DNA of 64,000 nt, taken from a virus (Duplodnaviria > Heunggongvirae > Uroviricota > Caudoviricetes). Each line of letters starts with the position of its first letter. Position 1 is the stretch's first letter. The notes under the pieces were generated by a model that saw only the letters and a list, made by a program, of their open reading frames with translations, did not search any database and was not told the DNA's origin. The position numbers were made by a program, and so were the translations under genes. This document shows, piece after piece, positions 4,924 through 47,032 of the stretch. Location: IMG/VR virus record IMGVR_UViG_3300048672_000527, positions 100,770 through 164,769 of that record; one strand, given 5' to 3'.

Positions 4924-4998
4924 GCGACTCTAGCATAATGGTAGTGCCGAGAACTCATAATTCTTAAGGTCTGGGTTCGACTCCCGGGGGTCGCACCA
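4924..4998 (+). tRNA. tRNA-Met (anticodon CAT)
   Basis: acceptor GCGACTC/GGGTCGC, T-arm CTGGGTTCGACTCCCGG, loop CTCATAA, encoded CCA. Confidence 0.75.
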
Positions 4999-5336: not shown

Positions 5337-5540
5337 ATAGAAGTAATGGTAGTCAACTGACTTTCAGAAACGATTGGAACACCCCGGTTCGATTCCGGGC
5401 AGTTCCACCATAACTATTCTATAGGGTTCGACTCCCACCAATGACCATAAATCAGTTAATCCTGATCTGGTTCTAGTATAGTTATGATGGGGCTGAACAG
5501 GTTTTCGACTCCGAAAGAAGTAAGATAGATTAGCTACTCG
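5337..5540 (+). ncRNA. tRNA-like fragments / acceptor-T minihelix (GGAACACCCCGGTTCGATTCCGGGCAGTTCCACCA) plus two more T-arm-like hairpins
   Basis: three GGTTCGAYTCC-type T-arm motifs without complete cloverleaf. Confidence 0.3.
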
Positions 5541-5666
5541 TCAGCGATAGACGTAAAAACTAAATGTAAGTAAATGCAAATATTGCACAAAACGATGAGG
5601 TCTTCGCTCTTGTAGCGTGATCGACTCTGAGGTAACATAGCCTTATAACCGAATAATGTCTAGCAG

Positions 5667-15141: not shown

Positions 15142-15154
15142 ATTGGGGTTAATT

Positions 15155-15715
15155 ATGACAAGAATTTTGGCATTGGACGTAGGCGGAACGCCTCGGAGTT
15201 GGATTAGTTTAGAACAAGCGGCATGTTATCATGCCACAAACTCTGTTGCATGGCAATGGGGCGAAGAAAAATTTGTGCTACGTGGTGGATACCAAAACGA
15301 TGGTACTCAATCTGTGATTGAAACATCTAGTATTATCGCCGTCAAGTCACAGAGTGGCTTCAGTATGGATAAGATTCATAAGGAAGTTGTTTTGAGTAAC
15401 CGAACACTGTTCGGTCGTGACCGTAACACTTGTGCTTACTGTGGTCGTGAATTCGGTCCTAGTAAGCTCAGTCGGGATCATATTCACCCGCGTAGTCGTG
15501 GTGGATTGGATGTGTGGACGAACGTTGTAACTGCTTGCCGTGATTGTAACTGCGACAAGGATGACCAAACGTTGAAGGAAGCAGGTATGGAACTTTTGTA
15601 CCTACCTTATGTTCCCAGCCACGCTGAAAAGTTACTTTTGGAAGGACACAAGATATTAAATGACCAGATGATATTTCTTAAGGAAAGATTACCTAAGAAT
15701 TCAAGACTCAATTAA
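15155..15715 (+). CDS. HNH endonuclease (free-standing, homing-type)
   Basis: CAYCG..DHIHP..GG..N..CRDCN HNH motif; sits at edge of tRNA array. Confidence 0.8.
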   Translation: MTRILALDVGGTPRSWISLEQAACYHATNSVAWQWGEEKFVLRGGYQNDGTQSVIETSSIIAVKSQSGFSMDKIHKEVVLSNRTLFGRDRNTCAYCGREFGPSKLSRDHIHPRSRGGLDVWTNVVTACRDCNCDKDDQTLKEAGMELLYLPYVPSHAEKLLLEGHKILNDQMIFLKERLPKNSRLN

Positions 15716-15804
15716 TTGATAACCTTTTCCAGAACCTCTAGATATTGGGGTTCTATTTAATGAATTGTAAAGAGAATTATAAGAAATTTTATTCGTGAGT
15801 GTGT

Positions 15805-15810
15805 TACAAT
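15805..15810 (+). promoter_or_regulatory. degenerate early promoter copy (-10 TACAAT inside stem-loop GTGAGT..ACTCAC)
   Basis: ATTTTATTCGTGAGTGTGTTACAATACTCAC. Confidence 0.35.
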
Positions 15811-15884
15811 ACTCACATGCAACGGGGAAACAGATAAGGACACCCTGTATAGTTGCAGAAGTTGTAAGTTGGATAATTTGATTA

Positions 15885-15913
15885 TTTTCTTTTATTCAAC
15901 AATGTGATACAAT
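15885..15913 (+). promoter_or_regulatory. early promoter (TTTTCT / TACAAT), tandem copy 2 upstream of tRNA array
   Basis: direct repeat AATTGATTATTTTCTTTTATTCAA shared with copy 3. Confidence 0.55.
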
Positions 15914-15990
15914 AACTCACATAACGGCGATAAATGATAGAGTTAATCGCTTAGTGTTCATTAAAAACAAGTTCTGAATTAAATTGATTA

Positions 15991-16019
15991 TTTTCTTTTA
16001 TTCAAAACTGTGTTATAAT
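15991..16019 (+). promoter_or_regulatory. early promoter, tandem copy 3; -10 inside stem-loop GTGTT-ATAATA-AACAC
   Basis: TTTTCTTTTATTCAAAACTGTGTTATAAT. Confidence 0.65.
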
Positions 16020-16080
16020 AAACACTTCAACAAGCATAAGCCATCGAGCTAGTTTGTAAAATGTTTCTTTAAAAATTAGT

Positions 16081-16912: not shown

Positions 16913-16986
16913 GGGGTTGAAGCTTTAAAGTGAAGCAACTGGCTTTTAACCAGTAGAAGAGGGGCCAGTACCCTCCAGCCCTACCA
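16913..16986 (+). tRNA. tRNA-Lys (TTT); T-loop GCCAGTA, D-loop lacks GG
   Basis: acceptor GGGGTTG/CAGCCCT, AC ACTGG-CTTTTAA-CCAGT. Confidence 0.65.
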
Positions 16987-17083: not shown

Positions 17084-17157
17084 GCCGCTTTAGTTAAAAA
17101 GTATAACATCGTGCTGATAACGCGAAGTCGGAGGAGCGTTACCTCCCGGCGGTACCA
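17084..17157 (+). tRNA. tRNA-Ile (GAT); T-loop AGCGTTA
   Basis: AC TCGTG-CTGATAA-CGCGA, D GTTA/TAAC, CCA end. Confidence 0.65.
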
Positions 17158-17534: not shown

Positions 17535-17613
17535 TCCGTAAAACCCGAGCATGGTGCATGGGCGTGACTGTTAATCACTGGTTAGGCTGGTTCGATCCCA
17601 GCATGCGGAGCCA
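17535..17613 (+). tRNA. tRNA-Asn (GTT)
   Basis: loop CTGTTAA, T-arm GCTGGTTCGATCCCAGC, discriminator G like E. coli tRNA-Asn. Confidence 0.7.
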
Positions 17614-17775: not shown

Positions 17776-17927
17776 CAAAATGAATGGGTTAGCAAGAGCC
17801 CAAGAGTAATCGCCGACCATGAGCTGCACGTGGTGTAAACAAGACCGATCATCTTGTCAACAACGGCGGGGTAAAAGACCCAAGAAACAGCACCGAATTG
17901 AAAAGAATGAAAATTCATTCTTATATG

Positions 17928-18000
17928 TGGGTATTAGTTCAATAGTAGAATATTCGTCTGTGAAACGAAAGACCAGGGAGCGTAACCCGGTACCCAACCA
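17928..18000 (+). tRNA. tRNA-His (GTG); T-loop AGCGTAA
   Basis: acceptor TGGGTAT/GTACCCA, AC TTCGT-CTGTGAA-ACGAA. Confidence 0.65.
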
Positions 18001-18008
18001 AAATATTT

Positions 18009-18084
18009 GCCTCTTAAGCTAATCAAGTGAAAGCGATGGACTGAAAATCCGTAGAGACTGGCGCGATACCAGTAGGAGGCACCA
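18009..18084 (+). tRNA. tRNA-Phe (GAA); T-loop CGCGATA
   Basis: acceptor GCCTCTT/AGGAGGC, AC ATGGA-CTGAAAA-TCCGT. Confidence 0.7.
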
Positions 18085-18098
18085 AAATGCAAAAAATT

Positions 18099-18174
18099 GC
18101 TCGCGAAGTATTAGCTGGTGGTATGCTTGTTTCGTAATCAAGAGGATCGAGTTCGAGGCTCGACGTGAGCTCCA
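18099..18174 (+). tRNA. tRNA-Thr (CGT), tentative
   Basis: acceptor GCTCGCG/CGTGAGC, T-arm TCGAGTTCGAGGCTCGA, loop TTCGTAA. Confidence 0.6.
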
Positions 18175-18175
18175 G

Positions 18176-18204
18176 TTTACTTTTATTTGTGGGTGTGTTA
18201 TAAT
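18176..18204 (+). promoter_or_regulatory. early promoter with -10 inside stem-loop (GTGTT-ATAATA-AACAC), drives the 1-kb non-coding block
   Basis: TTTACTTTTATTTGTGGGTGTGTTATAAT. Confidence 0.65.
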
Positions 18205-19248
18205 AAACACTTCAACAAATTACTAACATTAAAGATTATTTTGTGATTTTTAATGTTAGTATAAAATAAGATTTAACGAGGCGTAGCTCGTGGCATTGAC
18301 GAAAGTCAGTGTTGTGTGATAAGTGTAGTGATACACCCAAAGATGTGATGCTTACATAGCACCGCCTAGCAATAGGTCACTCTACGCAAGCCTGCTCAGA
18401 CTCGTGAGGGTCCCATCATGGATAAGACCTGTGGTGGTAACAGTGAAGCAAGTGTAATGGAAAGAACATTGGCTTAGACGCCCGCAAGGGGAACGTCAGT
18501 CGATGGAGAGTAACAGGTGGTGCTGACCTCATTACAAACCAACTTGGCAACTGGTATGAGAAAAGGTAGTCAGAGTAATCCGAGGAGTCGCATCCAAGGG
18601 TGGCTGGCAGTTTGAATGGTTTATGGTGGTACGCGAAAGCCGAGACCCAACATGAATCGTGAAAGACGACTGAGTAGCTCGCGAGGCAAAAGGTACGTGG
18701 TGTGTTGTATTTCGTGGAACAAAATTTTGCGAAGCAACTGAGACTGCACATCACAGTAAGTTATTTGTAGCATAATGGTAATGCAATTTCCTGTTAAGAA
18801 ATACACTGTTGGTTCAAATCCAACCAAAATTTAAAACGCAAAGACAGTCTCGGTAGTATGTGAAAGACATCTAAAACTTTGATCCGTAAGGATAACGAAG
18901 TCTAGTGAAACTCGCAAGGTGACATTAGTTTATGGTGGAAACTTCATAGATGGTTAGCGCCGTCGAACAGCTCGCAAGGTTGGTGGGGAATGATACTGTA
19001 GAATAGCATATTACGATAAGTCTACTGCCTGACTTTCAAAACGGCGATGTTAACGGTTTACGGATACGCGAAAGCTGAGACCCCGTGGAAGAGGAGCGAA
19101 GTGTGACTCGCAAGGTTACATTATAATGCACGAAGAACCGTTGTAACGACTGTATTCTCAGGTCGCTAAAGTGTTTATTATATTGAGCAAATTATAAGCA
19201 AGTGTTTAATATATTGTACATTTTAATGTTTTTTAACTGGAGTTTATT
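18205..19248 (+). ncRNA. candidate large structured non-coding RNA (~1 kb)
   Basis: no plausible ORF either strand; GC higher than flanks; repeated modules (CTCGCAAGG x4, ACGCGAAAGCYGAGACCC x2, GTTTATGGTGG x2); GNRA hairpins. Confidence 0.35.
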
Positions 19249-19464
19249 ATGAGTTTTAAGCGTGATGAAAATAACCGTTTTGTTCCAACGAAACATTTCA
19301 AGATGACTAAGTCGGCAAAGCGATTGGTAGCTGCAATTCAAAGTAAAGAATTGCGTGATCACTTTAAGGGTATGATGCAACAAGCAATTATGCAGTCATT
19401 TGAAGTGATTGAAAAGAAGAAAAAGAATCCGTTGACCGGCAAGGTTGAGGCGGAAGCCGTGTAA
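19249..19464 (+). CDS. hypothetical small basic protein
   Basis: ORF with RBS GGAG; inside tRNA array. Confidence 0.45.
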   Translation: MSFKRDENNRFVPTKHFKMTKSAKRLVAAIQSKELRDHFKGMMQQAIMQSFEVIEKKKKNPLTGKVEAEAV

Positions 19465-19472
19465 ATATTACA

Positions 19473-19554
19473 GCGGGCGAGTGGAACAGATATATAAACC
19501 ATTCCGGTCTCATAAGCCGGCGATACTAGGTGCGACTCCTAGGCTCCGCATCCA
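19473..19554 (+). tRNA. tRNA (CAT anticodon: Met/Ile2-type), atypical D region
   Basis: AC CCGGT-CTCATAA-GCCGG; T-arm CTAGGTGCGACTCCTAG. Confidence 0.45.
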
Positions 19555-20527: not shown

Positions 20528-20601
20528 GCCCTTTTATTTCAATAGAAGAATAGATCTTTGGTAAGGATCAGACAGAGGAGCGTAACCTCTAAAGGGCACC
20601 A
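20528..20601 (+). tRNA. tRNA-Thr (GGT); T-loop AGCGTAA
   Basis: perfect acceptor GCCCTTT/AAAGGGC; loop TTGGTAA. Confidence 0.65.
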
Positions 20602-21153: not shown

Positions 21154-21245
21154 GCGAGTGAGACTTGATAGTCAGAGAGGTCTTATAAACCTTTTAGCGC
21201 CAGATTAGCGTTCTTGAGTGGGTTTGATTCCCACCACTCGTACCA
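21154..21245 (+). tRNA. tRNA-like, 92 nt, anticodon loop CTTATAA (TAT/TAA?), irregular D/variable arms
   Basis: acceptor GCGAGTG/CACTCGT; T-arm GTGGGTTTGATTCCCAC. Confidence 0.4.
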
Positions 21246-21847: not shown

Positions 21848-21922
21848 GCGATGTTAGCTTAGTGGTAAAGCAGATGCCTCTAAAACATTTGATCGAGGGT
21901 TCGATCCCCTCACATCGCGCCA
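21848..21922 (+). tRNA. putative suppressor tRNA, anticodon CTA (reads UAG)
   Basis: perfect acceptor GCGATGT/ACATCGC, D GCTT-AGTGGTA-AAGC, AC GATGC-CTCTAAA-ACATT, T-arm GAGGGTTCGATCCCCTC. Confidence 0.55.
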
Positions 21923-23441: not shown

Positions 23442-23516
23442 GCCTCGTTAGCTCAGAAGTAGAGCAACACCCTTACAAGGTGAAGGTCGGGATTGCAAAA
23501 TTCTCACGAGGTACCA
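23442..23516 (+). tRNA. tRNA-Val (TAC); 9-nt T-loop
   Basis: D GCTC-AGAAGTA-GAGC; loop CTTACAA; acceptor GCCTCGT/ACGAGGT. Confidence 0.65.
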
Positions 23517-28201: not shown

Positions 28202-29269
28202 ATGAAAATTTATCTAGTTGGCGGTGCTGTCCGCGATATGTTGATGGGGCTGGAACCTAATGACCGAGATTATGTGGTTGTTGGTTCCTCACCAAACGAA
28301 ATGTTAGACTTGGGATATACCCAAGTCGGTGCGGATTTTCCTGTATTCCTGCACCCTGTGACGGGAGAAGAATACGCTCTCGCCCGTAGTGAACGTAAGA
28401 TCGGACCGGGGTATCTTGGCTTTGAAACTCAATTTGACCACACGGTTACTCTTGAGCAAGATTTGGAACGGCGTGACTTTACGATGAATGCCATCGCAAT
28501 TGATATTGAAACTAAAGAGATCATTGATCCATTCTGCGGCCAACTGGATATTAAAAATAAAATCATTAGACATACAAGCCCCGCTTTTGATGAAGACCCA
28601 CTACGAGTCATTAGAGCTGCTAGATTTTACACAAAATATAATGGTTTTAGAATAGATACAAACACATTTAGATTGTGTAAATCTATAGCCGAATCCCGCT
28701 CACTTAACGAAATTAGTGATGAGCGATTTTGGGCAGAATTTAAAAAGGTTAATTCAAAAAACTTGGTTAATTTCTTTTCTGTGCTTTTTGCATTTGGAGT
28801 TTTCGACCACTGTGATATGTTCAAAGATACATTTGGTGAAACAGATTTGTATGTTTTTGATGATATGTCTCATAATTTGTCACACATTAATAGACTGAAC
28901 ATTTTTGTGGCGAGAATTGCTTACAGATGTAATGCAAAACTAACACGGCCTTCAGTACCATCAGATGTCCGTTGGTTGATGAGTATCTTAAAATCTAACT
29001 ATAATCTTTTATATAATGCGGATGAAGCAGTTGATTTTATCTCACATGCAAGAGGTTGGTTTGATATTGAGCGTTTAGTTATTGCTAGACTAGCTTTGCC
29101 TTACTGTGCTTTTTCATTAGAAGAACTTATGATCATTGTTGCAAGAACTTCAAAAATTGATACCTCATGTGCAATTGATTCTTCATTGAGAAAACTAGAA
29201 GGTAAAGAAATTGGTGATTGGATTAGAAATGAACGCATTAAAATTACCGAAAATATTTTGAAAGGTTAA
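28202..29269 (+). CDS. tRNA nucleotidyltransferase (CCA-adding enzyme) head domain protein
   Basis: YLVGGAVRD .. RDYVVVG .. pol-beta NT fold motifs. Confidence 0.8.
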   Translation: MKIYLVGGAVRDMLMGLEPNDRDYVVVGSSPNEMLDLGYTQVGADFPVFLHPVTGEEYALARSERKIGPGYLGFETQFDHTVTLEQDLERRDFTMNAIAIDIETKEIIDPFCGQLDIKNKIIRHTSPAFDEDPLRVIRAARFYTKYNGFRIDTNTFRLCKSIAESRSLNEISDERFWAEFKKVNSKNLVNFFSVLFAFGVFDHCDMFKDTFGETDLYVFDDMSHNLSHINRLNIFVARIAYRCNAKLTRPSVPSDVRWLMSILKSNYNLLYNADEAVDFISHARGWFDIERLVIARLALPYCAFSLEELMIIVARTSKIDTSCAIDSSLRKLEGKEIGDWIRNERIKITENILKG

Positions 29270-33451: not shown

Positions 33452-33546
33452 ACCACCCACTTGAATTGATTGACTATATCGCCATTTCTGGTGGTGTAAT
33501 TTTGTCTGTGTACTTGATTTATCGTTCTTTGAAGGAGATGAAGTGA
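33448..33546 (+). CDS. small membrane peptide (32 aa)
   Basis: hydrophobic; overlap packing. Confidence 0.3.
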   Translation: MNHPLELIDYIAISGGVILSVYLIYRSLKEMK

Positions 33547-34289
33547 TGGGGCACGGCACACATTGTAACCAAGGTGAATATCTTGGCGGTTGTAAGTATG
33601 GCGAGGCATCTAAATGCACAGAATTGAATAAGAAAGATGATATGAATATTCCTGAAAATACCCCGATTTCCGTATTCTTTTGGCCTAATTTACCAAACAA
33701 AAAGACTCTCGATGAGTTTACTTTTGGTGCAACCCCCGCCGCCAGATATTTGGTTCGCGAACTGAATAGCCGAGGTCAAGAATCACTGAACCGTTCTATC
33801 GGTAAGCGGATCACCACTACGGCTGCTATGGTACAGGATTTGCTGAAGTCTTATTACGAAGGTACTTTGTCAGCAAAAACAGTTGCTAACACTTTGCGCT
33901 TGATGCGTGAAGAAATTGTACGTGAAAACAACGACACCATTTCTGATGATACTCTATTAGATCATCTGCGTTCGAATGTGCAGATTGGTTATATCAAGCA
34001 AGGTATTCGACTATGTACTGTAGCACGTAAAGCAGAACGTGTGATGCAAAGTCCTCTAAAGCGTGCTAGCAATACACGTAAAGTCGGAAACAGTGTTCAG
34101 TTTAAATTTAAGGATTCAAATACAAATTCTGAATATGTAGCTGGTGCAATGTTCAACGTGAATGGTGAATATCACTTTGCACCAAAGATTTTTAGCACAG
34201 ATGAAATTGCAGATGTGACACCAGAGATTCTGGAAGCACGAAGCCAGAAGCGTTGTAAACGTCTGAATAAACCTCACACACGTGTATGA
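33546..34289 (+). CDS. hypothetical protein
   Basis: ORF; RBS GGAG. Confidence 0.55.
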   Translation: MGHGTHCNQGEYLGGCKYGEASKCTELNKKDDMNIPENTPISVFFWPNLPNKKTLDEFTFGATPAARYLVRELNSRGQESLNRSIGKRITTTAAMVQDLLKSYYEGTLSAKTVANTLRLMREEIVRENNDTISDDTLLDHLRSNVQIGYIKQGIRLCTVARKAERVMQSPLKRASNTRKVGNSVQFKFKDSNTNSEYVAGAMFNVNGEYHFAPKIFSTDEIADVTPEILEARSQKRCKRLNKPHTRV

Positions 34290-39784: not shown

Positions 39785-41194
39785 ATGAACAATTCAATTC
39801 TACTTAACACCGACAGCTATAAGGCTAGCATGTTTTCTCAGTACCCAGAAGGAACCGAGTATGTCTACTCATACATTGAGTCCCGAGGAGGCAAGTACGA
39901 TCGTACAGAGTTTCTCGGCGTTCAAGCAATTGCCAAAGAGCTATCAGTCCCAATTACTCAAGCGGATATTGACTTGGCAGAAAAAATCTGGGCCGCTCAC
40001 GGAGAACCTTTTAACCGTGCTGGTTGGCAGTACATCCTTGAAGCACATGGTGGATACCTCCCTGTTAGAATCCGTGCAGCTCGAGAAGGACTTATCATCC
40101 CCACAAAGAATGTATTGTGTACCATCGAGAACACCGATCCAAAATGCTATTGGCTTACAACTTGGATTGAAACCGCACTCCTTCGAGCTATCTGGTATCC
40201 AACCACAGTCGGTACAACCAGCTGGCACATTAAGCAAGAGATTCTAGCTTACTTGGAGAAATCTGGTGATCCTACTACTATCGGTTTTAAACTGCACGAC
40301 TTTGGTGCTCGTGGTGTAAGTTCTCTGGAAAGCGCGGCAGTAGGTGGAGCAGCACACCTAGTCAATTTCATGGGTACAGATACTATGTCTGGCATCCTGC
40401 ATGTTATGGATGTTTATGGTGGTGATGTTTGTGGATTCTCTATTCCAGCAGCCGAACACAGTACCATTACCAGCTGGGGTCGTGAAAACGAAGTAGCAGC
40501 TTACCGTAATATGTTGAAGCAATTTGCAAAGCCTGGTGCTATCGTTGCTGTGGTTAGTGATTCTTATGACATTTATGCTGCTTGTGAAAAGTGGGGAACG
40601 GAGCTAAAAGATGATGTTGTCAATTCTGGCGCAACTGTTGTTATTCGTCCTGATAGTGGTGATCCTGTTGTGGTTCTTCCTAAAATGCTATCCATTCTGG
40701 CTAAACACTTTGGATTTTCTGTTAACGAAAAGGGATACAAAGTCCTTAATAATGTTCGCATTATCTGGGGCGACGGTATTAACTCTGTGTCTCTTAGCAG
40801 TATCTTGCGCTGTGTTGTGGATGTTTGCGGCTACTCAGCAGATAATCTAGCATTCGGTATGGGTGGTGGTCTGTTGCAACAATGTGACCGTGATACTCTG
40901 AAGTTTGCTATGAAGTGTAGTGCAGTTGGTGTCCGCGTTGAAATCGATGGTCTAGAAGGACTCGAATGGCGTGATGTGTTCAAGGACCCAGCAACCGATC
41001 CGGGCAAGACTTCTAAGAAGGGTCGTGTGCAACTTTGGACTAGCGGTGGTGAATATCAAACTTCAGTAAACCGCCCCGCAAACTGGTCTGATAAGGGATT
41101 TGATTGGAAGGATGCAATGGTGACTTACTTTGAAAACGGTAAGGTAACATTCACTCAAACTTTTGATGAAGTTCGTGCGAACTCTAACAAATGA
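39785..41194 (+). CDS. nadV: nicotinamide phosphoribosyltransferase (NadV/NAMPT)
   Basis: 469 aa; DSYKASMF N-term and overall NAMPT architecture. Confidence 0.9.
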   Translation: MNNSILLNTDSYKASMFSQYPEGTEYVYSYIESRGGKYDRTEFLGVQAIAKELSVPITQADIDLAEKIWAAHGEPFNRAGWQYILEAHGGYLPVRIRAAREGLIIPTKNVLCTIENTDPKCYWLTTWIETALLRAIWYPTTVGTTSWHIKQEILAYLEKSGDPTTIGFKLHDFGARGVSSLESAAVGGAAHLVNFMGTDTMSGILHVMDVYGGDVCGFSIPAAEHSTITSWGRENEVAAYRNMLKQFAKPGAIVAVVSDSYDIYAACEKWGTELKDDVVNSGATVVIRPDSGDPVVVLPKMLSILAKHFGFSVNEKGYKVLNNVRIIWGDGINSVSLSSILRCVVDVCGYSADNLAFGMGGGLLQQCDRDTLKFAMKCSAVGVRVEIDGLEGLEWRDVFKDPATDPGKTSKKGRVQLWTSGGEYQTSVNRPANWSDKGFDWKDAMVTYFENGKVTFTQTFDEVRANSNK

Positions 41195-45895: not shown

Positions 45896-47032
45896 ATGTT
45901 TACACTACAAGAAGCCCTAGAGGCAATTAAGAATAAGCCAGAATTTCGTTGTAACGAACGCGAGTATGGTTATGTGATCGACTACGCTGTGGCGTTCACA
46001 GAATCATTCAAGGGTTCTACCCCGCGTGAAACCCTGATTCTGCAAAACCTACGTGGTACCTGCTTTGATCACTCGGGTAAAATTATCCGCTTGGCATATC
46101 ACAAGTTCCACAATCTGAATGAGAACGCAGAGTACGCAGAGGAAAATTTCCCGTTGGGTGTTCCGCACGTTGTTCAGGAAAAACTGGACGGCTCGATGAT
46201 TACTCCTATTCCAATGCCAGACGGTTCTTGGAAGTTCGGTACTCGCGCTGGTGTGACCGAAGTTGCAGATAAGGCTATGGCACTGCTAAAGTCTTGGGAA
46301 GTTGGTTCTTACCAAAAGTATGCTGCATACGTAAAGCTGATCGAATCTATGCTGGCAGTTAACCATACTGTCATCTTTGAATTCTGCTCGCGTGAACAAC
46401 GGATCGTAATCGACTATCCCGAACCTTTTTTGGCTGTAACTGGTGTTCGTTGTAACGAGACCGGTGAATATAAGTCAAATCGGACTCTGCGTTGGTTTGT
46501 ACAAAATCCTCGGATTATTGTAGCACGTACTATTTCAGACCACCATGGTTTAGGTGACCTAGCAAAGAAGGTTTCTGGTCTGTTGGGTGAAGAAGGTGTT
46601 GTTGTCAAGTTTGATGATGGTCGCTTTGTGAAAATTAAGGCTACCGACTACTGTTTGAAGCACCGCGCTCTGGATGGTCTGCGTAACGAAAAGGATGTTT
46701 TGCAATTGGTTCTAAAAAACGAGTTGGATGACGTTCTACCACTGGTAACTCCAGAAGTTCGTGATCGTCTAGTTGCTTATAACGAATCCGTATGGTATCG
46801 ATTGAATCTGGCTCAACAAGAAATGGTTGGTTGTTTTGATCGGCTGAAGCACTTGACTTCTAAAAAGGAATTTGCCGAAATGGTTAAGGATTCTGTCTAT
46901 AAGCAGGGTCTGTTCAAGATGTATGATGGTAAGAATTATCAACTGAAAGACTTCGTACTAACTAAATGTGGTTCTTCCACAGATGTTGAGTCTGTACGTT
47001 GGCTGATCGGTAAATCTTATTTGGAGTTCTAA
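45896..47032 (+). CDS. rnlA: RNA ligase 1 (RnlA-like)
   Basis: EKLDGS (KxDG ligase motif I) and HKFHNLNEN vs T4 Rnl1 EKFFNLNEN. Confidence 0.8.
   Translation: MFTLQEALEAIKNKPEFRCNEREYGYVIDYAVAFTESFKGSTPRETLILQNLRGTCFDHSGKIIRLAYHKFHNLNENAEYAEENFPLGVPHVVQEKLDGSMITPIPMPDGSWKFGTRAGVTEVADKAMALLKSWEVGSYQKYAAYVKLIESMLAVNHTVIFEFCSREQRIVIDYPEPFLAVTGVRCNETGEYKSNRTLRWFVQNPRIIVARTISDHHGLGDLAKKVSGLLGEEGVVVKFDDGRFVKIKATDYCLKHRALDGLRNEKDVLQLVLKNELDDVLPLVTPEVRDRLVAYNESVWYRLNLAQQEMVGCFDRLKHLTSKKEFAEMVKDSVYKQGLFKMYDGKNYQLKDFVLTKCGSSTDVESVRWLIGKSYLEF

Follow-up and report, generated by a model that had tools for sequence, protein, structure and literature searches.

A stretch of DNA of 64,000 nucleotides (nt), positions 100,770 to 164,769 of the IMG/VR virus record IMGVR_UViG_3300048672_000527, was analysed here as a whole (hereafter the window). 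Between the tRNA-Thr gene (18099-18174) and the other members of a tRNA array of ~30 genes, it contains a block of about 1 kilobase (kb) at 18176-19248 that harbors a GOLLD RNA gene. GOLLD is an already known giant noncoding RNA of phages, and the block is a further example of it, not a new class. Taken together, it is very likely that the block represents a complete ~890-nt GOLLD gene in the tRNA array of a T4-like phage, which would be transcribed early in infection, assemble into an RNA cage and carry a structural tRNA mimic. To our knowledge, GOLLD has no known function, despite its discovery in 2009 and its solved cage structure, and one more copy leaves this question unchanged for the family. 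As regards genome annotation, 1 kb of seemingly "empty" sequence among the tRNA genes of a T4-like phage turns out to be a defined RNA gene.

Identity and extent of the RNA gene

Scanning of the whole window with Rfam covariance models at curated thresholds revealed a GOLLD (RF02032) match at 18697-19164 on the plus strand, which with 175.1 bits exceeds the gathering score (150) and has an E value of 1.6e-47. The match is complete and untruncated, covering model positions 1-416 of 416, and is the sole match in the window apart from tRNAs and a transfer-messenger RNA (tmRNA). It was reproduced in a permissive rescan restricted to 17900-19500, in which the models of ROOL, HEARO and group I/II introns gave no match at E ≤ 10; the remaining matches of this rescan are tRNAs and noise-level microRNA (miRNA) or RAGATH-33 matches far under threshold. 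The original prediction had proposed a structured noncoding RNA of the GOLLD or ROOL class, or of a new one, and had suggested that a search with the Rfam models of GOLLD, ROOL, HEARO and the introns would decide. Given that GOLLD is one of the two classes it named, the full-length RF02032 match makes this test positive for one of them, and the idea of a new class found no support.

RF02032 is confined to the 3' half of GOLLD, which is the conserved one. The structured RNA in total comprises ~890 nt, at 18277-19165 on the plus strand, and the remainder of the block consists of promoter, leader and 3' spacer; the extent of ~1,040 nt that was first assigned to the RNA is therefore too long. With its ~890 nt and a structured 5' domain, the RNA agrees with the definition of GOLLD as an RNA of roughly at least 700 nt with a less conserved 5' domain of ~400 nt.

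The absence of a credible open reading frame, as originally noticed, holds on comparison: the longest frame, a Cys/His/Ser-rich one of 112 amino acids on the minus strand (18416-18754), is not conserved, and among the 25 homologues compared the longest open frames shift in strand, frame and position. The claim of a higher GC content holds in part. At 0.41-0.51, the block is richer in GC than the sequence directly on either side (0.34-0.39) and than the protein-coding background, but it does not exceed the tRNA array around it (0.44-0.50).

Fold and conservation of the two domains

A degenerate pattern based on the 3' terminus of the GOLLD model retrieved 120 loci from IMG/VR, and the block was compared with these loci by blastn. 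In total, 25 viral contigs align over window positions ~18319-19162. One of them (L047) is 99.9% identical and represents the same phage, and ~24 contigs align at 67-75% identity from ~18319 through the 3' domain. The unit from ~18319 to the 3' end has a constant length of 829-846 nt. In a MAFFT alignment of 24 sequences (A1), conservation begins with the first two hairpins of the 5' domain (Table 1) and ends with a last hairpin at 19147-19165. Locus L015 has an intrinsic terminator immediately after this last hairpin, and many homologues possess a promoter of the form TTGAC-17-TAcAAT immediately in front of the RNA. The ends of the transcript were placed from this conservation and from the one terminator-bearing homologue.

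RNAalifold analysis of the homologues revealed 232 base pairs, 165 of which show at least one compensatory double change. Across 23 homologues from viral contigs, the 115 pairs predicted for the 5' domain are paired in 96.3% of cases, compared to 77.8% in shuffles and 34-42% in controls with slid partners; 80 of them changed on both sides, and the observed values were reached by 0 of 500 shuffles. Similarly, 95.9% of the cells are paired in the 3' domain, compared to 32-42% in slid controls, and both partners changed in 94 pairs; none of 500 shuffles reached these values. Covariation, which the original prediction had singled out as a further check, thus supports both halves of the RNA. Between them, a helix of nine base pairs (bp) that closes the linker crosses the outer stem of the Rfam model (18697-18703/18748-18754). 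The two crossing helices are 98.7% paired, with compensatory changes in 9 of 16 pairs (0/500 shuffles); as the outer stem and the crossing helix both covary, the linker is closed by a pseudoknot. Altogether, the ~25 orthologues yield a secondary structure, supported by covariation, of the 5' domain, which the Rfam model leaves out.

The 5' domain contains a hairpin, CAG-GUGGUG-CUG, that is the same in all 24 aligned sequences. Of 82 GOLLD loci that do not belong to the clade, 25 carry its 8-mer motif GGUGGUGC at a constant spacing from the 3' end, compared to 0-3 occurrences for each of four permuted control 8-mers in the same test. The hairpin is also present in the GOLLD sequence of env-38 (PMC12286853, Supplementary Table 4), and the 5' halves of env-38 and the clade share short motifs in the same order. 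We provisionally regard the 5' half as a homologue of the 5' domain found in other GOLLD RNAs (P1-P13), an assignment that comparison of the sequences has only partly tested. Two further pairings were considered and rejected. One, a long-range helix, would join the second 5' hairpin to the invariant GGCGAUG in the 3' domain (A1 columns 164-171/970-978); it is 87% paired but uncompensated, and fails in the window copy. The "CCA" that follows the last hairpin in most homologues, which might be taken for a tRNA-like 3' end, is explained by an extension of the terminal stem that pairs with GG (columns 1077-1078).

The reiterated modules of the block, which had also been pointed out originally, belong to the same fold. 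The 18-nt module ACGCGAAAGCYGAGACCC occurs twice, against 0 copies expected, and forms the tips of one hairpin in each domain; homologues bear other GNRA loops at both sites, with GCAA, GUAA and GAAA found at the 5'-domain site in A1. A second module, GTTTATGGTGG, is likewise present in two copies in the block, with a third at 40412. For CTCGCAAGG, the four copies reported were too many: three are exact, against 0.24 expected, and the near-copies CCCGCAAGG and CTCGCGAGG have one mismatch each. The CUCGCAAGG units align to consensus hairpins ggcuCGCAAggcc of the model, and their core CGCAAG is invariant in the clade. GOLLD cages are held by GNRA tetraloops through A-minor and tetraloop-receptor contacts (PMC12286853; PMC12990946). 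The repeated modules are therefore ordinary features of the family, namely GNRA-tetraloop hairpins that serve as its usual contact elements.

Two GOLLD structures have been solved by cryo-electron microscopy (cryo-EM), the env-38 RNA as a 14-mer (PDB 9MEE; PMC12286853) and that of Streptococcus agalactiae as a 12-mer (PDB 9L0R); moreover, dodecamer and decamer forms and a tRNA-Phe in J13/15 are known (PMC12990946). Like the solved RNAs, the window RNA exceeds 800 nt and combines the conserved 3' domain with a distinct 5' domain of ~420 nt; its linker, which follows the first hairpin of the 3' domain, is variable, GNRA-tetraloop hairpins abound, and the gene lies in a phage genome beside tRNA genes. 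In contrast to them, it is carried by a T4-like, virulent-type metagenomic phage. Its primary-sequence similarity to env-38 is undetectable outside short motifs, and its linker holds a 74-nt cloverleaf, compared to a disordered linker loop of 42 nt in env-38. By homology, the window RNA probably forms a 12- to 14-mer cage. The gene would be transcribed in early infection from a sigma-70-type promoter of its own (18175-18204), possibly with additional read-through from the array. The RNA would then fold without protein, as do the two RNAs solved by cryo-EM, and self-assemble by tetraloop/A-minor and kissing-loop contacts into a hollow particle, in which the 3' domains would form a ring and the 5' domains the caps, with the linker directed into the lumen.

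Three other identities of the block were weighed against GOLLD. A new class of large structured RNA, which would resemble GOLLD merely in generic modules such as GNRA hairpins and a tRNA, might be suspected from an Rfam model that spans just half of the RNA and from a 5' half that has neither an Rfam match nor sequence similarity to env-38. Nevertheless, a GOLLD 5' domain is expected to vary (PMC12286853), the GGUGGUGC hairpin at its fixed distance is common to other GOLLD loci, and the tRNA sits in the insertion-tolerant linker of the model, where it contributes no score; the full-length match above the curated threshold thus led us to reject this reading as exceedingly improbable. A protein gene in decay, or low-complexity sequence recently inserted among the tRNA genes, would fit the 112-residue frame on the minus strand and the AT-rich, repetitive flanks; it was rejected in turn, with virtually no probability left to it, on account of open frames that vary in strand, frame and place among the homologues, helix substitutions that are overwhelmingly compensatory, and a unit length held constant despite 67-75% identity. 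Group I/II self-splicing introns, HEARO and ROOL elements have a comparable size and are known from the tRNA regions of phages, so that one of them could have lodged in this array. Their covariance models are silent in the rescanned region and GOLLD accounts for the whole of it, which makes such an element next to inconceivable here.

A few observations nevertheless weigh against the overall picture of a complete, cage-forming GOLLD RNA. The single-sequence minimum free energy of 18277-19165 is no better than that of shuffles (z = -0.47), a value that is uninformative. An nhmmer profile of the clade gave no match to the env-38 GOLLD sequence, and the alignment obtained by adding env-38 to the clade with MAFFT --add is unreliable; the equivalence of the 5' domains therefore rests on the order of the motifs and one shared hairpin. 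The transcript ends are likewise deduced, from conservation and from the terminator of one homologue, and the cage and its stoichiometry are extrapolated from two members with differing peripheral helices.

A tRNA-like cloverleaf in the linker

The pseudoknotted linker encloses a tRNA-like gene that the original prediction had overlooked, a cloverleaf with the anticodon GTT. It scores 53.8 bits on the Rfam tRNA model, over model positions 4-67 only, and falls in the stretch that RF02032 treats as variable. Its GC content is 29.7%, compared to 51% in the neighbouring tRNA-Thr and ~50% in the neighbouring tRNAs in general. Only 4 of the 7 acceptor pairs are formed, with mismatches at 1-72, 2-71 and 3-70. 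Among the canonical features of a tRNA, the cloverleaf with a D-loop GG and a T-loop TTCRANY is present; a 7-bp acceptor stem and a conserved anticodon are absent.

A cloverleaf occupies the same place in 21 of the 25 clade members, with eight different anticodons (GTT, CTT, TTT, TGT, GAT, TCT, TTA and ATT), of which GTT is the commonest; malformed anticodon loops also occur. In a dedicated alignment of these elements (A2), one and the same anticodon stem bears the anticodons GTT, TTT and TCT. Pairing reaches 94-100% in the D, anticodon and T stems and in the four inner pairs of the acceptor, with numerous compensatory changes, and the D-loop GG and a T-loop TTCAAAT are conserved. Overall, the cloverleaf is 93.6% paired, with double changes in 15 of 21 pairs. 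The outer acceptor pairs 1-72, 2-71 and 3-70, in contrast, are 66.7% paired with 0 compensated, and 15 of 20 sequences have G1-U72. In two members, L009 and L013, most of the cloverleaf is deleted. As the arms are kept by compensatory change and the anticodon and outer acceptor drift, selection appears to act on the shape of a tRNA and not on its identity as a decoder. The embedded element is thus most likely a structural tRNA mimic rather than a decoding tRNA-Asn, which is the reading we favour from the aligned sequences, and it would be held as such inside the cage.

Such elements are not confined to this clade. An embedded tRNA-like element was found at the linker in 25 of 108 sampled GOLLD loci, and in other clades the embedded "Leu" and "Ser" forms have no long variable arm. 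One array in a metagenome-assembled genome (MAG) has ordinary Asn, Lys, Ile and Thr tRNAs of its own in addition to an embedded copy with a malformed anticodon loop. In published structures the GOLLD linker is placed inside the cage, and tRNAs are sometimes found there (PMC12286853; PMC12990946); for a pseudo-tRNA inside a mycobacterial GOLLD, no expression was detectable (PMC6582537).

The window also has an Asn(GTT)-like gene of 79 nt at 17535-17613 on the plus strand, with a discriminator G73 and an encoded CCA, which was missed by both default scans and called by relaxed ARAGORN. In this array, the actual decoding of Asn may fall to this gene.

Alternatively, GOLLD could be mainly a carrier or store of a working tRNA-Asn, which would be excised by RNase P and RNase Z and completed by CCA addition by the phage, with the cage delaying or regulating its release. 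This "inhibited storage" has been raised before (PMC12990946), and an embedded tRNA that keeps its shape while losing decoder features bears on it. The tRNA-Asn(GTT) call by ARAGORN is in keeping with it, as are the conserved D- and T-loops, the covariation of all four arms, the prevalence of GTT in the clade, the CCA-adding enzyme encoded in the window, and default scans that find no second Asn tRNA in the array. Moreover, a few members (L004, L037 and L087) still form all 7 bp of the acceptor stem, G-U pairs included, and most copies retain U33 and a purine at position 37, both of which speak against a mere mimic and leave room for a functional, excisable tRNA. G73 is an identity element of tRNA-Asn in bacteria. 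The embedded elements, however, have T or A as the discriminator base, and the relaxed scan finds the other Asn(GTT)-like gene with G73 and CCA. The storage of a tRNA-Asn is further opposed by the three mismatched outer acceptor pairs and low GC content of the window copy, by the poorly paired outer acceptor across the clade, and by anticodons that switch among near-identical bodies. In addition, L009 and L013 have lost the element and Verrucomicrobia GOLLDs lack it, with an RNA that is otherwise intact, and the mycobacterial counterpart yields no detectable tRNA (PMC6582537). On balance, we consider storage of a working tRNA unlikely, and the structural mimic is preferred.

The ~30 tRNA genes, the CCA-adding enzyme, the RNA ligase and the tmRNA nearby point to a role of GOLLD connected with tRNA or translation during lytic growth. 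More speculatively, the cloverleaf might be a selected tRNA mimic of which each cage holds 12-14 copies as tethered baits in its lumen, forming an RNA-only decoy compartment that protects the translation supply of the phage. The baits could bind or sequester a factor that recognises tRNA, for example RNase P, an enzyme of modification or CCA addition, or a defence directed at tRNAs such as a host anticodon nuclease, and the anticodon would drift or be selected to match its target. We regard this specific proposal as a long shot.

Promoter, genomic context and related loci

The features of the window are listed in Table 1. As originally predicted, the block opens with a promoter-like site whose -10 box sits in a hairpin; it can be read as TTTACT-17-TATAAT at 18176-18204, with the -10 box inside a 5-bp GTGTT/AACAC repeat. 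Six sites of the form GTTTAC-N-TAnAAT are present in the window, all on the plus strand, against 0.31 expected. They are near-identical and share the extended motif GTTTACTTTWATT...TG.TATAAT, so that we read these putative sites as a real promoter family of the phage, which we take to resemble T4 early promoters. At several promoter-like sites that precede the tRNA array or lie inside it (15790-15816, 15895-15920, 16003-16030 and 18188-18220), the -10 boxes lie inside short inverted repeats, namely GTGAGT...ACTCAC, ATGTGA...TCACAT and GTGTT...AACAC. A 24-nt promoter module, GTGTTATAATAAACACTTCAACAA, is duplicated at 16003 (16003-16030) and 18194.

Table 1. Position of the RNA gene, its parts and other features in the window
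Feature	Position	Strand	Remarks
Early-type sigma-70 promoter (putative)	18175-18204	+	GTTTAC-N18-TATAAT, upstream TG; -10 inside GTGTT/AACAC
Inverted repeat bracketing the GOLLD gene	18199-18212 (left arm); 19169-19182 (right arm)		Perfect, 14 nt; TATAATAAACACTT (left), AAGTGTTTATTATA (right)
Leader hairpin	18221-18261	+	AT-rich, 16 bp, 94% complementary; between promoter and GOLLD
GOLLD 5' domain	18277-18696	+	420 nt, ~20 helices, outside the Rfam model; first hairpins 18277-18290 and 18294-18311 (GAAA loop)
Invariant hairpin CAG-GUGGUG-CUG	18514-18525	+	Motif GGUGGUGC; same in 24 aligned sequences
18-nt module, copy 1	18631-18648	+	GAAA-tetraloop tip ACGCGAAAGCCGAGACCC in 5'-domain hairpin
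GOLLD 3' domain (conserved)	18697-19165	+	RF02032
Pseudoknotted linker	18739-18852	+	Closed by 9-bp helix 18739-18747/18843-18852
tRNA-like cloverleaf, anticodon GTT	18760-18833	+	In GOLLD linker; tRNA-Asn by ARAGORN
GCAA-tetraloop hairpins	18911-18919; 18971-18979; 19107-19115	+	CUCGCAAGG; conserved GOLLD feature
18-nt module, copy 2	19066-19083	+	Tip of 3'-domain hairpin with GAAA Rfam consensus loop; model positions ~335-352
Permuted two-piece tmRNA	5348-5620	+	RF04321, 82.7 bits (gathering score 47); adjoins tRNA-Met 4924-4998
HNH endonuclease	15143-15715	+	Head of tRNA array
tRNA genes found by Rfam, missed by default ARAGORN	16913-16983; 17084-17154; 17928-17997; 18009-18081; 20528-20598; 23442-23513	+	Six genes
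tRNA-Ile(TAT)	21154-21245	+	
tRNA with anticodon CTA	21848-21922	+	"Pyl" by ARAGORN, amber-suppressor type; 66.2 bits on Rfam tRNA model
CCA-adding tRNA nucleotidyltransferase	28202-29269	+	
RNA ligase, T4 Rnl1 type	45896-47032	+	

The left arm of the 14-nt inverted repeat that brackets the GOLLD gene overlaps the -10 region of the promoter. A repeat of this length was reached by 1 of 1000 shuffles, and further copies lie at 19200-19213 (13/14 matches) and 16014-16027. The flanks of homologues bear an analogous AGTGTGTT/AACACATT pair that is not significant in any single homologue. A conserved closing stem from flank to flank was considered and rejected, with RNAduplex z-scores mostly ~0 and a longest-stem test that is not significant per homologue; the 14-nt repeat of the window is alone in standing out. 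The repeat could be a processing stem in read-through RNA, releasing the unit from array-length precursors, or could represent antisense -10 elements or operator half-sites. The leader hairpin is found only in the window phage and its 99.9% identical twin; the other homologues have no counterpart, and in Rfam it matched only miRNA models, at noise level.

Proteins encoded in the window include a gp43-type DNA polymerase, which shares 42% identity with polymerases of cyanophages and marine viruses, as well as UvsX, a gp41-type helicase, a clamp loader, a DNA ligase, an RNA ligase, NAMPT and a CCA-adding enzyme. The polymerase, UvsX, helicase, clamp loader and ligases identify the carrier of this GOLLD as an uncultivated T4-like phage, in line with the original assignment. 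A tblastn comparison of the window proteins with the homologous loci found one uncharacterised protein of 193 amino acids common to five loci, which is uninformative as to whether all hosts of the RNA are T4-like.

The arrangement closely resembles the GOLLDs in tRNA arrays of Mycobacterium (PMC6582537), where GOLLD also lies in a large, horizontally transferred tRNA array, carries a tRNA-like gene in its J13/15 linker and forms a trio with the array and an HNH gene. GOLLD with an embedded tRNA in Mycobacterium tRNA arrays is also attributed to Morgado et al. 2020, as cited in PMC12990946. The mycobacterial RNAs differ in that they reside in actinobacterial chromosomes and embed a tRNA-Phe or pseudo-tRNA, compared to the Asn-like element of the T4-like phage. 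In addition, the orthologue series of the window clade shows anticodon drift with covarying arms. Like ROOL, the window RNA is a large ornate phage RNA near tRNA islands, and ROOL also forms an RNA-only cage with an inward linker (PMC12286853); the two are unrelated in sequence and fold, and no ROOL model matches the block.

Searching cultured phages by blastn and megablast gave one weak match only, to Sinorhizobium phage Phosso (PV764938), with 68.7% identity over 389 nt. The matched region (L163 2541-3009; ~33533-34001) is an unannotated GOLLD of 186.6 bits in a 1-kb gap between coding sequences 79 and 81. It has an embedded tRNA-like element of 54.1 bits on the Rfam tRNA model that ARAGORN does not call. 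Compared to the window phage, Phosso is not T4-like but a 469-kb jumbo phage of an alphaproteobacterium; its GOLLD has no flanking tRNA array within 2.5 kb, and the 5' domains of the two RNAs are not aligned by blastn. A cultured phage-host pair, Phosso on S. meliloti, thus carries an unannotated member of the same GOLLD clade.

A scan of bacterial genomes with a 19-nt motif of the 5' domain found GOLLD at 6 of the 18 loci checked, so the motif alone is not diagnostic. GOLLDs with this motif lie in tRNA arrays of acidobacterial MAGs, namely of Pyrinomonadaceae (L126, L129 and L160), with an embedded tRNA-like element, and in tRNA arrays of Verrucomicrobiaceae MAGs (L156 and L158) and an Akkermansia muciniphila MAG (L157), without one.

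The CCA-adding enzyme and the Rnl1-type ligase make up a set for tRNA maintenance and repair. Permuted tmRNAs are known from alpha- and beta-proteobacteria and cyanobacteria, and the one in the window may hint at the host. The six tRNA genes that default ARAGORN missed look like a set with non-canonical elbows: all six end in an encoded ACCA, four have T-loops such as AGCGTTA or AGCGTAA instead of TTCRANY, and the two that were inspected in full lack the D-loop GG.

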